Shown here in pieces: positions 1,947 through 11,511 of a DNA stretch of 26,092 bases. A model generated the notes under the pieces. It saw only the letters and a program-made list of their open reading frames with translations, was not told where the DNA came from and made no database searches. A program made the translations under genes and the position numbers. The stretch covers positions 1 to 26,092 of the IMG/VR virus record IMGVR_UViG_3300005522_000013; one strand, written 5' to 3'. How positions within the stretch are numbered: position 1 is the first letter of the stretch; each line of letters begins with the position of its first letter. The stretch is from a virus (taxonomy: Duplodnaviria > Caudoviricetes).

Positions 1947-2351
1947 ATGAGTCAAGTTGATACTGAAAAATACGTTGAGTTTGTTAATGCTGTTACCAGC
2001 GATGAATCAAAAAGATATGATGCATTTGATAAGAGAGTTTACGAATTGGAATCTAATATTCCTGTTGAACGTCTCTTGACCGCAGCTCTTGGTATTTGTG
2101 CTGAGGGTGGTGAGTTTACTGAGGTAGTCAAGAAGATTATTTTTCAAGGTAAACCACTCAATGAAGAAAATATCTTTCATATGAAACGTGAGTTGGGAGA
2201 CATTATGTGGTATGTTGCTCAGGCATGTATGGCATTAGATACAAATTTCAATGAAATTATTGAAATGAATGTAGAAAAATTAAAGGCTAGATATCCTGGT
2301 GGAGAATTTGATGTAAAACATTCCGAAGTCCGAAAGGAAGGTGACGTATAA
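1947..2351 (+). CDS. mazG: MazG-like NTP pyrophosphohydrolase
   Basis: AEGGEFTEVVKK and RELGDIMWY motifs; usual position after gp41 in cyanomyoviruses. Confidence 0.93.
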   Translation: MSQVDTEKYVEFVNAVTSDESKRYDAFDKRVYELESNIPVERLLTAALGICAEGGEFTEVVKKIIFQGKPLNEENIFHMKRELGDIMWYVAQACMALDTNFNEIIEMNVEKLKARYPGGEFDVKHSEVRKEGDV

Positions 2352-3289
2352 TGCATGATTCTTCAAAACTATTGACTGGATTAAAATTTAAACAGTCTCT
2401 AAGATATGGTGAGAATCCACAACAGAATGCAACGTGGTGTGTGTACCCAGATCACGGTTTATCATCAGCAAATCAATTACAAGGTAAGGAATTAAGTTAT
2501 AATAATTTAATAGATTTAGACGCAGCAGTAGCAACAGTAAAGGAATTTCCTGATGAACCTGCTGTTGTTGTAATTAAACATACTAATCCATGTGGTGTTG
2601 CTATAGGAGAGACTATAGATTCTGCATTAACTAGAGCATTAGATTCTGATAGGGTTAGTTGTTTTGGTGGAATTATTGCTTTAAATAGAGAAGTAAATAA
2701 GGAGTGTGCTGATGAGTTAACAGGTGCTTTTTATGAATGTATCGTTGCTCCATCATTTAGTGATGAAGCGAAGAAAGTACTTTCTACTAAAAAGAACTTG
2801 AGATTACTTGAGTTGGATATTGATAATATGCAACTAAAACCATATAATGTTAGGAGTATTCTTGGTGGAGTATTGGTTCAAGAAAAGGACAATGAACCAG
2901 TTAATATTAATGATTGGAAAGTAGTTAGTGAAAGAGCTCCAACAGTTCAAGAATTGATTGACCTTACATTTGCTTGGAAGGTTTGTCGTCATGTTCGTTC
3001 TAACGCAATTTTAGTTGCTAGTAATGGAGCAACATTAGGTGTTGGAGCAGGACAAATGAATCGTGTGGGTTCAGCAAACATTGCATTGAATTCAGCAGAT
3101 GTTAATGGTGCTGCATTAGCAAGTGATGGGTTCTTCCCATTTGGTGACACTGTAAGATTAGCACATGAATATGGTATCAAGGCAGTCATTCAACCAGGTG
3201 GAAGTATCAAAGATCAAGAATCTATTGATGCATGTAATGAGTTAGATATGGCTATGATATTTACAGGTAAACGACATTTTTTACATTAA
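2351..3289 (+). CDS. purH: AICAR transformylase (C-terminal half of PurH as a stand-alone gene)
   Basis: LRYGENPQQ, GKELSYNN, KHTNPCG, GVGAGQMNR, ASDGFFPF, IQPGGSIKD, and the PurH C-terminus TGKRHFLH. Confidence 0.95.
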   Translation: MHDSSKLLTGLKFKQSLRYGENPQQNATWCVYPDHGLSSANQLQGKELSYNNLIDLDAAVATVKEFPDEPAVVVIKHTNPCGVAIGETIDSALTRALDSDRVSCFGGIIALNREVNKECADELTGAFYECIVAPSFSDEAKKVLSTKKNLRLLELDIDNMQLKPYNVRSILGGVLVQEKDNEPVNINDWKVVSERAPTVQELIDLTFAWKVCRHVRSNAILVASNGATLGVGAGQMNRVGSANIALNSADVNGAALASDGFFPFGDTVRLAHEYGIKAVIQPGGSIKDQESIDACNELDMAMIFTGKRHFLH

Positions 3290-3925
3290 ATGATTATGAG
3301 TTACGCATTATTAAGTGTTTCAAATAAAGATGGTATTGTAGATTTTGCAGAAGAATTAGTTCGTGCAGGATACACCCTTATTTCAAGTGGTGGAACCCAT
3401 GCAGTAATTCATGCAGAAGGTATACCCGTAATGAAGGTATCTGAATATACTGGTTCACCAGAAATTCTTGAAGGTAGAGTAAAGACACTACATCCAAAGA
3501 TTCATGGTGGTATTCTTGCAAAGCGTGGTCATCCTTTACATGATCTAGATCGTAATGCAAATGGTATTGGACTCATTGATATTGTTGCAGTTAATCTGTA
3601 TCCATTCAAAGAAACTGTTTCTAAACCAGATGTAACCTTTGAAGAAGCAATAGAAAATATTGATATTGGTGGTCCTAGTATGGTAAGATCAGCAGCAAAG
3701 AATCATAAAGATGTTGCTGTATTGACTAATCCTAATCAGTATGGAATTTTTCTTGATGTATTGAAGGGCAATACATCTTCTACTACAATGGACGAATTAA
3801 AAACTCAATTTGCATTAGAAGCATTCAAACATACTGCTGAGTATGATGCGACAATTAGCGCATGGATGCAGGAAAATAATATCTATGAAGAGACAAAAAG
3901 TTCATACGGTGGAACCCTTACCTAG
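3290..3925 (+). CDS. purH: IMP cyclohydrolase (N-terminal MGS-like half of PurH as a stand-alone gene); start may be ATG 3296
   Basis: [64 protein letters not shown]. Confidence 0.95.
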
Positions 3926-3974: not shown

Positions 3975-4169
3975 ATGATTAATATTGAAGTTGATGTGAG
4001 AACCTCTATTGCAATTAGACAAGTTCTATTTCGTGAACAGGATCTTTATACATATGATCCTACCTGTTGTCCTCAACGAATCGTTGATATTCGGAGTGTT
4101 ATCCAAAACCTTGACGAACAGATTGAAAGTGAGTTAAAATCTATTGAAGAAGAAAATACTGAAGAATGA
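3975..4169 (+). CDS. small hypothetical cyanophage protein
   Basis: 64-aa ATG ORF filling the gap; its stop overlaps the next start (ATGA). Confidence 0.7.
   Translation: MINIEVDVRTSIAIRQVLFREQDLYTYDPTCCPQRIVDIRSVIQNLDEQIESELKSIEEENTEE
4111..4140 (+). promoter_or_regulatory. possible sigma70-type promoter for the cmoA-like gene
   Basis: TTGACG (4111-4116), 18 nt spacer, TAAAAT (4135-4140), inside the upstream ORF. Confidence 0.4.
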
Positions 4170-4861
4170 CATACGACTTTTCTTTTGCACATTCACCAGA
4201 AGGTTTTGATAATCATATTGATAGTTCTATCCGCGGATATTCAAACCTTCTAGAAGATACTGTATCATTTTCCCGATACTTTGTGGAAGATGATACTAAA
4301 GTCGTTGATGTTGGTTGCTCAACTGGTAAACTCACTAAGATGATTATTGGTAACAATCCCAATCGTCAGAGGGCCCAATATGTTGGTGTAGAACTTGCTG
4401 GTAGTTTTTATGATGATCTGACAGAACGTTATACGGAAATTCGTAAGGATTATTGTTGGGCTCTTTTGGAATGGGTTCGGGGTAACATTACAAACTATGA
4501 GTTTAGGAACTGTTCTCTAGTAACTTCACTATTCACTCTACAGTTTATGCCAAAGACCACTAGACAAGAGACGATCAATAAGATCTATAATGGTATTAAT
4601 GAAGGTGGTGCATTTATCTTTGCAGAGAAGTTGATGTGTGAGAATGCATTCTTTCAAGAACTTCTTACTTTCAATCATTATGACTACAAGAGAAAGTCCT
4701 TCTCTTCTGAAGAGATCATGGATAAGGAGCAACAACTCCGTGATATGTTAAAACCTAATACATGGAAAGAACTTTATGGTATGATTATGTCAGCTGGTTT
4801 CAAAGACTGTCAGATCTTCTGGAGAAACCATCAGTTCGTCGGAGTCATCGCAATCAAATAA
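4166..4861 (+). CDS. cmoA: CmoA-like carboxy-S-adenosyl-L-methionine synthase (class I SAM-fold)
   Basis: Collinear CmoA motifs: FDNHIDSSIRGYSNL, VDVGCSTG, FTLQFM, GGAFIFAEK, HYDYKR...EI..K, AGF...F.G.IAIK. Confidence 0.85.
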   Translation: MTYDFSFAHSPEGFDNHIDSSIRGYSNLLEDTVSFSRYFVEDDTKVVDVGCSTGKLTKMIIGNNPNRQRAQYVGVELAGSFYDDLTERYTEIRKDYCWALLEWVRGNITNYEFRNCSLVTSLFTLQFMPKTTRQETINKIYNGINEGGAFIFAEKLMCENAFFQELLTFNHYDYKRKSFSSEEIMDKEQQLRDMLKPNTWKELYGMIMSAGFKDCQIFWRNHQFVGVIAIK

Positions 4862-4870
4862 ACTGGCACA

Positions 4871-4894
4871 AGGGACCTAGACAGGTCCCTTTTT
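4871..4894 (+). terminator. intrinsic terminator-like hairpin after cmoA
   Basis: AGGGACCT-AGAC-AGGTCCCT, perfect 8-bp stem followed by a T run. Confidence 0.7.
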
Positions 4895-4905
4895 AGTGTT
4901 ATATT
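4878..4905 (+). promoter_or_regulatory. sigma70-type promoter overlapping the hairpin
   Basis: TAGACA (4878-4883) and extended -10 TG-T-TATATT (4897-4905). Confidence 0.55.
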
Positions 4906-4997
4906 ATATTCATGGTTCTCAAGGGAACCTGCAGATCCTATCTGAATCCTTCGGGACATGGGGATCTGGTTTTCACGTAAACCCTATCCATTTAATT

Positions 4998-5945
4998 ATG
5001 ACTATTTTTACTTATCCCGGTGTCAAACTCCAAGGACAAGTCCCCCTTCTCCTTGACGCATTTGACCAAGACAGTTTGCAGAATGCATCCCGAGCCGGTG
5101 ATACTGATCCCCTGAATGTCAAAAAGATTGAACAATCTTTCCAGACCCGTGGGGTACTTGAAGAGTGTCCTCTTCCTACTGCAATCAAAGGACCCAATGG
5201 TCGTCCTCTTCTAGTCGATGGTGCACACCGTTGGACTGCTGCACTCAATCTTGGTTGGAAAGAACTGAAGTTCAACTACTATGTTCCTAGTGATCCTAGT
5301 ACGTTTGATTACGAACACTTCCTCATGTCCAAGGGACTTGAGAGTAATGATCATGTTCCTGCCAAAGCTATCTCTTCCGCAGACTTTGAACGTGCAGTAG
5401 CAGTATATGTGGATAACAATATCGACACTTTTGAAACTGAGGCTGACGTTTTGAATTTTGTAAGCCAATTCAGTATTTCTTCTATTGTCCAAAAGACAAA
5501 GAACAATATTGCAAAACGTGTCTTCCTTAAGAAGGTCAACACATCTCAAATCAAACAGTTTGATAAGAGAAATGTTGAAACTACGTTCCGTAATCTTCTT
5601 AAAGGTTGTGAAGTTGAAACTGTAGAGAACGTAAACTCTGGCACTCAGACTACTCGTTCGACTATGGATCCTGTGCTTCGTGCAATCAAACATTACGAAA
5701 GGCATGGAGAACCTATTCGTTATGTTGTCCTGACCAAGAACTGTGAATCCATGAATGATGTTGTTACAACTCGTTCAGAGATTGTCAAAACTTGGGAAAG
5801 GAACTATAATATGCTTCGTGCAGTCATTTACGAAGTGGACGATCAAGAATCTGGTTATCAAATCGAATACCCATTTGAGATCGTAGGTGCAATCCCACAG
5901 GTAAATGGTCAAGAGTCAGTTGATAAACTTGCCGATATCGTATGA
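4998..5945 (+). CDS. ParB/sulfiredoxin-like N-terminal domain protein with unknown C-terminal region
   Basis: ParB/Srx signature P...LLVDGAHRWTAA preceded by 'IEQSFQTRG'; ATG 4998 preferred over GTG 4896, which lies in the promoter. Confidence 0.7.
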   Translation: MTIFTYPGVKLQGQVPLLLDAFDQDSLQNASRAGDTDPLNVKKIEQSFQTRGVLEECPLPTAIKGPNGRPLLVDGAHRWTAALNLGWKELKFNYYVPSDPSTFDYEHFLMSKGLESNDHVPAKAISSADFERAVAVYVDNNIDTFETEADVLNFVSQFSISSIVQKTKNNIAKRVFLKKVNTSQIKQFDKRNVETTFRNLLKGCEVETVENVNSGTQTTRSTMDPVLRAIKHYERHGEPIRYVVLTKNCESMNDVVTTRSEIVKTWERNYNMLRAVIYEVDDQESGYQIEYPFEIVGAIPQVNGQESVDKLADIV

Positions 5946-6757
5946 TTGATAAACTTCTGGTAGATACTATCAGAAATGAGGTCCCCACGGATACCGTGGG
6001 GATTTTGTTATCTGGAGGTGTAGACAGTCTGAGTCTGGGTTTTGCTGCCCATCGTCTTGGTAAAAAAATTACTGCATATACTTTTCATCTGGAGGGTGAC
6101 AAGTCTTATGATGCAAACAAAGCTGAAGAAGTTAGTAAAGAATTTGGATGGGAATGTGAGACAGTTGTTGTTCCCACCACAAATCTTAGAGAGGACTTTC
6201 TTCGTCTTGTAAAAAATTATGATTGTAGAAAGAAGACTCACTTTGAGTGTACTTTTCCTTTCCTCTACGTTTTTCCCCACATCAAAGAATCATATCTCCT
6301 CAGTGGTATTGGTGCCGATGGATACTATGGTGTGAGTAAGAAAGCAATCCTTCACTTCAAAGAACCAAAAGAGAAGTTTGATCAATTCAGACGTAACTAT
6401 TTCATGCCACATAATGTGACTGGATTCCGACAAATCGAACAGTTGGCTAATGAGAAAGGTGTTAGACTTGTACATCCCTACATCTATCATGATGAAGTAA
6501 GAGATTATTTCTTCAAGTATGATTGGTTTGAATTGAATCAACCCAAACAGAAACAGGTGGTGAGAGATGCATTTAAAGAAGAATTTGATAGAGTCACCAG
6601 TGTCAAAGATCATATCAATCTTCAACTTGGTTCTAACATTGATCACTTGTTTGAAAAATTACTAGATGATGAGGTGCTAAATAATCGTAAAAGGAAGAGA
6701 GTCATGGACTTGGCTTCCGACTACGCATCTACTGGACAATCGATACTACCCCTATGA
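5942..6757 (+). CDS. asparagine-synthetase-like ATP-dependent amide ligase lacking a glutaminase domain (CmoY-like)
   Basis: PP-loop LLSGGVDS, LLSGIGADGYYG, HPY, KQVVRDAF; only 271 aa with no N-terminal Ntn domain; ATGA overlaps at both ends. Confidence 0.85.
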   Translation: MIDKLLVDTIRNEVPTDTVGILLSGGVDSLSLGFAAHRLGKKITAYTFHLEGDKSYDANKAEEVSKEFGWECETVVVPTTNLREDFLRLVKNYDCRKKTHFECTFPFLYVFPHIKESYLLSGIGADGYYGVSKKAILHFKEPKEKFDQFRRNYFMPHNVTGFRQIEQLANEKGVRLVHPYIYHDEVRDYFFKYDWFELNQPKQKQVVRDAFKEEFDRVTSVKDHINLQLGSNIDHLFEKLLDDEVLNNRKRKRVMDLASDYASTGQSILPL

Positions 6758-7872
6758 AACTTCCCTACAAACTACAAGATGTCTATGACGGTGAGGCACA
6801 AGCCAAGTTCACTGTAATCTCTACATTCGCTGGTGGAGGTGGCTCCTCCACTGGATATCGTCTTGCTGGTGGTAAGATTCTGTGTATTAATGAGTTCGTT
6901 GAAGAAGCAAGGAACACATACTCAGAGAACTATCCTTCAACAAAGATTATCCCTGATGATATTAAACAACTGACAGGTAAAGACTTCCTGGAAGCCACTG
7001 GTCTCAAACAAGGAGAACTGGATATCCTTGATGGTTCACCACCTTGTTCTGCATTCTCTGTTGCAGGTTCTATGTGTCGTGGTGAGGGTTCTAAACACTC
7101 TGATGGGTGGGGTAAGACTAAGACTTATTCAGATGGTAAGAAGGTAGAGAATATTGAAGACTTGTTCTTTGAATATATTCGTGTTGCCAATGAAATCAGA
7201 CCCAAGGTTATCGTTGCTGAGAATGTCAAGGGTCTGACTATTGGTGAGGCTAAGACTTATTATGCTATGATTACCAATGCCTTTGAGGAGATTGGTTACC
7301 TTGTCACATCAAAAGTGATGAAGTCATCTCATTATGGTGTTGGTCAGGCAAGAGAAAGACTCATCTTCATTGCAGTTCGTGAAGATATTGCTGACATGGT
7401 AGGAATCAATATACTGACTGTATCCTCTCTTTTTCCACCTACATTATCCAAAGATACTACGATTCGTGATATTATTGATGGTGTTGAGAATGATCCTGAG
7501 AACATCAAAGGTCTCACAGAACACATGTTGAAGAGTGGTATCTATAAGAAAGTTGTCTCTAAGATGCCTAAGGATCCTAAAAAGATTCTTTCTGGTATGA
7601 ATTATCATGAGAAGGGTCATTGTTTTAATACTAAGAGGGCATCATTCTATAAACCATCTCCCACACTAACTGCAAGTGGTGGTTTAATTCATTGGAACGA
7701 GGATAGAGTATTGTCTGTTCCAGAACTGAAACGTATTCAATCTCTTCCTGATGACTTTGTTTTGACTGGTTCTCATTCTCAACAGACAGAAAGAGTGGGT
7801 AGAATGGTTCCGCCTTTGATGATGAAAGCAATCGCAGAAAACATCTATAAAGAAGTTCTTTCTAAAGTCTAA
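6754..7872 (+). CDS. C5-cytosine DNA methyltransferase family protein, probable carboxymethyltransferase (CmoX-like)
   Basis: Motif I FAGGGG, IV GSPPC, VI ENV, VIII QARER, IX R.LS..E..RIQSLP, motif X GRMV instead of GN(A/S)V. Confidence 0.9.
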   Translation: MKLPYKLQDVYDGEAQAKFTVISTFAGGGGSSTGYRLAGGKILCINEFVEEARNTYSENYPSTKIIPDDIKQLTGKDFLEATGLKQGELDILDGSPPCSAFSVAGSMCRGEGSKHSDGWGKTKTYSDGKKVENIEDLFFEYIRVANEIRPKVIVAENVKGLTIGEAKTYYAMITNAFEEIGYLVTSKVMKSSHYGVGQARERLIFIAVREDIADMVGINILTVSSLFPPTLSKDTTIRDIIDGVENDPENIKGLTEHMLKSGIYKKVVSKMPKDPKKILSGMNYHEKGHCFNTKRASFYKPSPTLTASGGLIHWNEDRVLSVPELKRIQSLPDDFVLTGSHSQQTERVGRMVPPLMMKAIAENIYKEVLSKV

Positions 7873-8901: not shown

Positions 8902-11511
8902 ATGAAAGACGTATTTAAATATCTGAAGGGCTCCAGGGAACTCCTGGAGTCCACAACCTCTGAGAGGGCGCAGGAACTTGGTTATAAATATCGTGCACGT
9001 GGTGTCTGGGGAGATCCTAGAACTGGTAAAAGGTATAGAACTGATGGTCTTCGTTTCGTAGAAATAGACGAACCTACTCCTCAAGAGAAAGAACCCAAGA
9101 CACAAGAACCTAAAACTCTTCGTAACTTTAGAAAAGACGCACCTAAACCAGAACAACCACAACAGAAGCCTTCTGTAGCTGACCAATATGCCAGGAATCT
9201 TCCTGGTGGTCCTGATGAGAGTGCATTTGAATCAGGTGATATTGAAGTAATTGCCCAGATGCTTGAGCGTGATATTTATGGTATTGTCACTCCTGAAAAA
9301 CATAAAGAATACTTGGTAAGAGCTCAACAAGAACTTGACATTTACAATCAAGAAAAACAACAAATAGCTGCCCAAGCCGAAGCAGAAGCAGCGGCAGAAT
9401 TAGGATCTGAACAGGAAGCTGAAGCTCAGGCTAAGGCAGATGAACATAATAAGTTGGTAAAAGATGCAGGTGAACCAGAGAAGACAGAATCAGATTTCAG
9501 GACTATTGATAAAGTTGTAGTTGATAATCTTGAAGAAAATGGTCAAAACTTTGATGGATCGATAACTCAGGGTGACGTAGATATTGCCACAGAAGAATCT
9601 ATACAAAGAGTTACTGATATCTCAAATACTGATGTAGAAGATCAAAGATTTGATGACGGAAGAGAGTCACAAAAAGAATTCCTTGACTACTACTCTAAAG
9701 ACTCTGAGAATAGAAAAGGTCTAGACACCTTGAATTCAATTGCCAAAACCGATGAGAAGGTTGAGCAATTGATGGATGCTATTAATAATGGAGACTTTCT
9801 TCAGGAAATTAATATCACACAGAAAGATAAAAGATCTGTAAGTCAAATACTTTTGGATGCTGGAATTGATGTCAATGATCAAGCTCAATTGGATTGCTTC
9901 AAAAATGCTCACAAAGAAATCAATAACTTTGTTGATGGTAAAGGTAGATTCAAGACAAGTGAATCTAGTGAATTGACAGGTAGTAACCTGGGACACTACG
10001 AGGCTAGACACATTGAGAAGAGAACTGATCTCTCAACTATGGATGCTGCGGGAGTACAAACTAAAGCATTTAACTTGAGGAATGATGCTGAATCTAATAT
10101 GCAATGTGTCACCCCTACGATTACTGATGCTGTTTATAACTTATTACCAACACCAGCTAGAAGTCAGTTGGCAAAGAGTGGAGCACCAGGAGAGAAAAAC
10201 CATTATGATCCTACAAAGAAAAATAGAAAAGGAACAGCAAATCCTATCAGAGGATCAGCAGCATTACATATGTGGGTGATACAAGATGGTAGAGACGCAT
10301 ATGCTGCAGCAGGTAGGAGAAGATCCCCTGGTGAATTCCAAGTAGAACATATTGTTCCATTGAAATCTGGTGGTAAAGATGAGATTGAAAACTTCTCTAT
10401 GCTCTTAAGAAGAGTGAATGAGCCCAGAGCAGACCTAAGCTTTGAAAAATTCTTGGCACAAGCAGTGACTAAAGCAGCTGATCTCATGGCTGACTTAAGT
10501 AATCCAAAGACCAGGGCTAAGTTTGAGAAGAAATATAGATCATCCAGATACAATGATAAGCTTGCACCCTCTGTAGGTGGATCAGTACAATCAATTATTG
10601 GTGATGATTTAATGAAGAATGTAAATCAAGATCTTGACGATAACTTAAGTGAGAAGGCTGCAGCCAAATTGAAAATTAAACCAGAGGAATTCAAAAATTA
10701 TCAACAAGAGGTTCAGGGTTTCCTTGATAAGAATGGATTGGATAGTGATACGAACATTAAAGATATGACGGCCAATCAAATGAATAGTATCTTTGATATA
10801 ATGACTGAAAATCTTGGTATAGATAAGTCCAAGATGATGGAATATATGGGTAGAAATGTCATCAACAATTATGATGTTGGTGGTAGAACAGTTATCAATA
10901 AAGAAACTGGAGAGTTGGAAAGAGGAAGAAGTGGAACCCAATCTTCTTCTGGTAACCTTACTACCATGCAAAACTCTATCATCGCAGATGATAGTTTTGA
11001 ACCTGAACAGAAGAAGGAAATGCTAAAAACAATTAATGATAACCACCAACAATTTAAGAAAGCTAGAAATACCTACATTGATAATCCAAATGATCCCCAA
11101 GCATTTGAAGAATATGTAGGTAGTATGTTAAATAATATTAGTTATCTTCAAGGAGATGGTGACTCACCACTCAGTCCAGATAGAAAATATGATACAAGAC
11201 TGACTCCTTCCGAGAAGAACACCCTTGACGACGACGTATTAAAGGGTATAATAGGTATGACGACAACTGATAAATCATCCCTCGCCAAAGATAAAGATGT
11301 GTTCTCTCCCGGCAGACAGAAAGAGATGACTCCCAAGGCCAAAGAACATGTAAAGGCTCTTCGTAAGAAGATGATTGATGCATACTCAAGGACAAGTGGT
11401 TTGACTCCAGAACAAATTAAAAACCCCGATAGTCTTAAGGCAGGTGATAAGAAAAAACTTCTTACATTGACTAACGCTTTAGAAAACTTCGACGCAGGAC
11501 TTGGATTATGA
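8902..11511 (+). CDS. large probable internal virion protein with central HNH endonuclease domain
   Basis: SD GGAG before ATG; QDGRDAY...VEHIVPLKSGGKDEIENF.ML...VN..R HNH motif at about 10285-10440. Confidence 0.8.
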   Translation: MKDVFKYLKGSRELLESTTSERAQELGYKYRARGVWGDPRTGKRYRTDGLRFVEIDEPTPQEKEPKTQEPKTLRNFRKDAPKPEQPQQKPSVADQYARNLPGGPDESAFESGDIEVIAQMLERDIYGIVTPEKHKEYLVRAQQELDIYNQEKQQIAAQAEAEAAAELGSEQEAEAQAKADEHNKLVKDAGEPEKTESDFRTIDKVVVDNLEENGQNFDGSITQGDVDIATEESIQRVTDISNTDVEDQRFDDGRESQKEFLDYYSKDSENRKGLDTLNSIAKTDEKVEQLMDAINNGDFLQEINITQKDKRSVSQILLDAGIDVNDQAQLDCFKNAHKEINNFVDGKGRFKTSESSELTGSNLGHYEARHIEKRTDLSTMDAAGVQTKAFNLRNDAESNMQCVTPTITDAVYNLLPTPARSQLAKSGAPGEKNHYDPTKKNRKGTANPIRGSAALHMWVIQDGRDAYAAAGRRRSPGEFQVEHIVPLKSGGKDEIENFSMLLRRVNEPRADLSFEKFLAQAVTKAADLMADLSNPKTRAKFEKKYRSSRYNDKLAPSVGGSVQSIIGDDLMKNVNQDLDDNLSEKAAAKLKIKPEEFKNYQQEVQGFLDKNGLDSDTNIKDMTANQMNSIFDIMTENLGIDKSKMMEYMGRNVINNYDVGGRTVINKETGELERGRSGTQSSSGNLTTMQNSIIADDSFEPEQKKEMLKTINDNHQQFKKARNTYIDNPNDPQAFEEYVGSMLNNISYLQGDGDSPLSPDRKYDTRLTPSEKNTLDDDVLKGIIGMTTTDKSSLAKDKDVFSPGRQKEMTPKAKEHVKALRKKMIDAYSRTSGLTPEQIKNPDSLKAGDKKKLLTLTNALENFDAGLGL

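Follow-up and report, generated by a model that had tools for sequence, protein, structure and literature searches.

The closest described system is that of Synechococcus phage S-B43, whose CmoX, CmoA and CmoY were characterised in PMC12783734 (Dec 2025; PDB 8YF3; GenBank MN018232). According to that paper, wild-type S-B43 CmoX (SpCmoX) takes Cx-SAM as its sole accepted cofactor and has GC as its target, DNA so modified being resistant to HhaI. In the 1.9 Å CmoX-Cx-SAM structure (8YF3), Arg350 takes the place of Asn304 of HhaI and touches the carboxymethyl group, and the R350N variant is described as using neither cofactor. CmoY adds glycine, and about 10% of C in the phage DNA bears the adduct (5gcxmC). 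The authors of PMC12783734 compiled 5,615 CmoX candidates using SPPC plus R350, expect other amines for other ligase clusters, report ParBc genes on many cmoX contigs, draw the parallel with M.MpeI N374K and discuss labelling uses. The literature searched contained no other publication on natural CmoX.

Two groups of related enzymes frame the comparison. In the engineered M.MpeI N374K and M.MedI N377K, substituting a basic residue for the Asn of motif X likewise permits the use of Cx-SAM (PMC12015181, PMC12783734), but these enzymes carry Lys, are CG-specific and retain SAM methylation (PMC12015181), whereas SpCmoX carries Arg, acts on GC and uses Cx-SAM only. Wild-type M.MedI, with Asn, is itself reported to carboxymethylate weakly (PMC12015181). 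The canonical C5 methyltransferases (PF00145, TIGR00675; M.HhaI, M.HaeIII, DNMT1) share with CmoX a common fold, motifs I, IV, VI, VIII and X and the covalent cysteine mechanism, but differ in having Asn in motif X (Asn304 in HhaI), SAM as donor and 5mC as product.

The stretch of DNA analysed here (the window, 26,092 bases) is a linear record with an estimated completeness of 14%. Its gene order is that of the Synechococcus phages S-B43 and RN05-S, with a helicase, a MazG-like gene, methyltransferases and later a cytidyltransferase, and it therefore most likely derives from a T4-like cyanophage. The ORF at 6754-7872 (+ strand) encodes 372 aa, as does S-B43 cmoX, and the two proteins (S-B43 QDH50620) are identical at 335/372 positions without gaps in a direct comparison. 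The closest phage records are RB11-B, S-B43 and S-B05 (90.1%), and the top PDB match is 8YF3, over residues 1-371, gap-free (E 7.6e-227); the M.MpeI-type entries 8C56 and 4DKJ show a slight sequence likeness (E 5e-5). PF00145 spans residues 19-366 (E 3e-53), and TIGR00675 of NCBIfam is also matched. Motif I (F25-AGGGG, cofactor binding) lies at 6826-6843, motif IV with the catalytic cysteine (S95-P-P-C98) at 7036-7047 and motif VI (E156-N-V) at 7219-7227, all on the + strand. F25, E47, F48, D69, S95-C98 and R350 are all conserved with SpCmoX, and none of the 37 substitutions falls at a named site; 13 of them are in residues 231-283, adjoining the recognition region, while residues 284-335 and 337-371 are unchanged. 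Both features by which candidates were selected in PMC12783734, SPPC at 95-98 and Arg350, are thus present, as is a neighbouring cmoA (see below).

Motif X itself is at 7789-7818 (+ strand), where the translation reads ERVGRMVPPL (CmoX residues 346-355), as in S-B43 CmoX and 8YF3. The codon for Arg350 is AGA at 7801-7803 (+ strand; codon start 6754+3*349), and its SpCmoX counterpart is the cofactor-contacting arginine of PMC12783734. Pairwise alignment places R350 opposite the N of VGNAVPP in DNMT1 and of IGNAVPV in M.HaeIII, so that the canonical GN-x-V Asn is absent from the window protein and Arg350 occupies its site, just as the original prediction had read it from the sequence. GRxVxP occurs once across the six frames of the window. 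Among IMG/VR relatives (the best 80 of 392, 83-97% identical), Arg is found at this site in 80/80, and it is encoded by four different codons (AGA 67, CGT 12, CGA 6 and AGG 2, in 87 motif copies at these 80 loci), which rules out sequencing error or chance as its source: Arg350 is neither an error nor the result of drift.

Taken together, 6754-7872 is almost certainly a CmoX orthologue. Its product very likely acts as a DNA cytosine carboxymethyltransferase in which Arg350 is predicted to bind the Cx-SAM carboxylate; the same role is very likely because the gene product is about 90% identical to CmoX and has the same arginine. By orthology with S-B43, CmoA (4166-4861) would convert SAM and prephenate to Cx-SAM, as shown for that phage, after which Cys98 of CmoX would attack C6 of cytosine in GC sites and the enzyme would move the carboxymethyl group to C5 while Arg350 binds the carboxylate. 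CmoY (5942-6757) would then adenylate the carboxylate with ATP and join glycine to give 5-glycylcarboxymethylcytosine, a modification which would shield the phage DNA against host restriction enzymes. For the window copy, which differs from S-B43 CmoX in being known from sequence alone, activity, recognition of GC sites, the use of glycine by the ligase and a role against restriction are predicted from the S-B43 system. Base composition lends no support to GC modification, since the GpC ratio of 0.68 is close to the 0.76 of a cmoA-free Melnitz locus, a difference without interpretable margin, and the CpG ratio is lower still (0.47). As regards structure, Arg350 faces the cofactor in 8YF3 (PMC12783734), and the window protein, which aligns there without gaps, is predicted to present it likewise; a single-sequence AlphaFold prediction of the window protein had a mean pLDDT of 29.8.

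Pfam, NCBIfam and PHROGs all label the gene as a C5 DNA methyltransferase, labels which are either older than the CmoX work or blind to the difference between methyl- and carboxymethyltransferases. They could also be taken at face value, the enzyme then being an ordinary SAM-dependent C5 methyltransferase or one using both cofactors, with Arg350 incidental. The SAM methylation retained by engineered Lys variants (PMC12015181) and the tolerance of Met and Leu at the motif X site in other clades fit such a view, but the 90%-identical orthologue is reported to use Cx-SAM only (PMC12783734), and the Arg stays invariant despite synonymous codon change and travels with cmoA (see below), all of which makes it very unlikely. 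A carboxymethyltransferase also accords with the original prediction that the motif X Arg marks a natural Cx-SAM enzyme, which has been demonstrated experimentally for the orthologue at the same residue number (PMC12783734). The comparison it proposed between wild type and R350N is available for the orthologue: SpCmoX wild type is specific for Cx-SAM, and the substituted enzyme was dead instead of becoming a methyltransferase (PMC12783734). Arg350 is therefore necessary but no simple two-way switch, given the inactive R350N, the Lys enzymes that still methylate and the weak carboxymethylation by the Asn enzyme M.MedI. The Arg350 system is thus a correct finding but an already published one. 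Carboxymethylcytosine, a natural DNA base made with a cofactor borrowed from tRNA modification, is notable biology, and GC-specific carboxymethylation, if coupled to an amide ligase, could serve for labelling DNA; the December 2025 paper already makes both points for the 90%-identical enzyme with the same residue number. To this the window contributes a further orthologue, an inserted gene within the cassette and, across distant homologues, a check that Arg predicts cmoA.

Judged from the sequence, the whole kit of cmoA, cmoY and cmoX is present in the window, in the same order as in S-B43 and likewise downstream of helicase and MazG genes. The cmoA orthologue (4166-4861, + strand, 231 aa), a predicted Cx-SAM synthase, is identical to S-B43 QDH50618 at 203/231 positions (88%) without gaps; its top NCBIfam match is TIGR00740 at 115 bits, under the cut-off of 193 for that family, and it matches the E. 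coli-type CmoA structures 4GEK and 4IWN (E 3e-26). The cmoY orthologue (5942-6757, + strand, 271 aa), a predicted ATP-dependent amide ligase of the short glycine type, overlaps the start of cmoX by 4 bases at its 3' end. It has PF00733 alone, with no GATase domain, and at 216/271 identical positions (80%) to S-B43 QDH50619 it is the most diverged of the three proteins.

Two differences from S-B43 stand out upstream. Firstly, a split purH pair directly precedes cmoA in the window, with the order of its parts reversed: the AICAR transformylase part is at 2351-3289, followed by the MGS/IMP cyclohydrolase part at 3290-3925, and the second part is also present in two relatives (L008 and L064). Secondly, the window has an ORF between cmoA and cmoY with no counterpart in S-B43, at 4998-5945 (+ strand), which encodes 315 aa from the ATG at 4998 or 349 aa from a GTG at 4896. 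It matches no Pfam or NCBIfam family and one unknown PHROG at E 1e-6; its Atlas look-alikes include ParB_N clusters, and it has a DGxHR-like motif that also points to ParB-N, so that ParB-N-like is given here as a lead. It is present in 4/80 of the best relatives (of 392), at 77-90% identity.

An insert in this position could mean that the module is inactive or disrupted. Terminator-like and promoter-like sites of its own lie ahead of it at 4870-4907, including a terminator-like hairpin after cmoA at 4870-4891 (+ strand), a consensus match which is weak evidence because three such sites were found vs 2.4 expected in shuffles, and a GmrSD-N/HNH-like insert occupies the same slot in 2/80 relatives (L013 2589-3920 and L026 3846-5192; best 80 of 392). 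The three cmo ORFs are however full length, without stops or gaps, the inserted ORF overlaps the start of cmoY by 4 bases as cmoA does in S-B43, and the same arrangement recurs in 3/80 relatives with cmoA on the piece (best 80 of 392), so that disruption is highly improbable.

What lies between cmoA and cmoX differs among the close relatives. In the best 80 of 392, it holds a glutamine-amidotransferase ligase in 40 (465 aa in place of the short ligase, at L008 2108-3505 and in 39 further loci of L007-L086), a short ligase alone in 14, a ParB-like gene with a short ligase in three, a GmrSD/HNH-like gene with a short ligase in two and no ligase in five, while cmoA is not on the piece in 16/80. 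Relatives with a swapped ligase have 85-97% CmoX identity, and some have no ligase; such swaps would mean that the end product of modification differs among near-identical phages. This frequent exchange, the 13 changes in CmoX residues 231-283, the 55 in CmoY and the expectation in PMC12783734 of other amines in other ligase clusters all speak for a carboxymethyltransferase in the window with a target sequence or ligase amine unlike those of S-B43. We consider this unlikely, as the window CmoX does not differ from SpCmoX anywhere in residues 284-335 and the window CmoY has the same length as SpCmoY, aligns without gaps at 80% identity and is not of the 465-aa glutamine-amidotransferase form. 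Two tandem Arg-type cmoX paralogues were seen in 7/80 relatives (L047-L052 and L082; best 80 of 392); they are about 69% alike and divergent in the recognition region, and may cover two target sequences.

The original prediction also proposed testing whether GRxV correlates with a neighbouring cmoA across genomes. This was examined in 366 loci, a query-biased sample in which the window and 12 regions of named phages were joined by loci retrieved in homologue searches; the best methyltransferase per locus was aligned to a profile for the motif X residue, and cmoA was sought with a five-sequence profile at a cut-off of 80 bits, within a gap in scores from 41 to 91, a search that covered flanks only for most loci. 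Arg was found in 207 loci (185 with cmoA), Leu in 80, Met in 38 and Asn in 32 (none of these three with cmoA), while nine loci did not align at the site, three of them with cmoA. The GN(A/S)V consensus ascribed to C5 methyltransferases thus applies to DNMT1 and M.HaeIII but is not universal, and loss of Asn alone is uninformative because there are Met and Leu clades without cmoA. Among the loci that extend 3 kb or more to each side (128, with 3 unaligned loci dropped), cmoA was present in 63/64 Arg vs 0/61 non-Arg loci, and after dereplication at 70% (64 loci, likewise query-biased and with at least 3 kb flanks) in 33/34 Arg vs 0/30 Asn, Met or Leu loci, bearing out the correlation. The Fisher p of 2e-17 for these 64 loci overstates the association, as the tree needs only four changes; the states are clustered on it, and the association represents a few independent events and not 64. 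For the same reason of common inheritance the residue, although residue-level evidence as had been claimed, is less independent of gene neighbourhood than supposed, Arg and cmoA being inherited together. Among the close relatives (best 80 of 392), cmoA was found in 64/80 loci, and in 49/49 of those with at least 2.7 kb upstream. The rule should help to annotate the many phage genes now called 'DNA methyltransferase'.

The lone Arg exception is Erwinia phage Yoloswag, in which cmoA lies about 14 kb away in the genome. Five whole records were searched including that of Yoloswag, with a match in 1/5 and no cmoA match in the four Leu, Met or Asn phages; a cmoA search of the genomes of L244, L197, L195 and L096, run with no positive control, found none. 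The Yoloswag enzyme (L088 3881-5989) is of the Arg type and 702 aa long; directly after the catalytic cysteine it carries a large insertion, intein-like by its position. A cmoA homologue is present in 48 Erwinia phage records. Searches of genome contigs with the window protein and with the Mcat8 protein found no relative, and a search with an alignment query had relatives among the matches listed (20/64 parts). Several loci with an Arg-type enzyme and adjacent cmoA (L209, L216, L221, L228, L240, L241 and others) are on bacterial-genome contigs from several phyla, and are probably prophages.

On quick trees, some enzymes from loci lacking cmoA are nested among the Arg enzymes, with either Asn (L244 5905-7215, L197 and L195) or Leu (L004 4010-5227 and L093-L172). 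There the Asn pair L244 and L197 falls inside starred Arg groups, and the Melnitz-type Leu enzyme clusters with cyanophage CmoX, which suggests that Arg was lost together with cmoA in some lineages. Possibly, Arg was gained once with cmoA and lineages within the CmoX clade that lost cmoA changed again (to Asn in L244, L197 and L195, to Leu in the Melnitz type, perhaps to Met), giving back-evolved methyltransferases or enzymes using another donor, a scenario we put forward tentatively and would not yet favour. In an AU test on a quick LG+G4 tree of 43 rows, a single Asn group was not rejected (p 0.067), and reversion to Asn is therefore treated as a lead and not claimed. If true, the back-evolved relatives would reveal the second-site changes needed for SAM use, which are of interest because R350N alone kills SpCmoX (PMC12783734). 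This reading concerns the relatives and not the window gene.

Further downstream in the window, 8902-11511 contains an ORF of 869 aa which matches no Pfam family and has a weak HNH match over residues 475-518 (PHROG 6050, E 7e-4).
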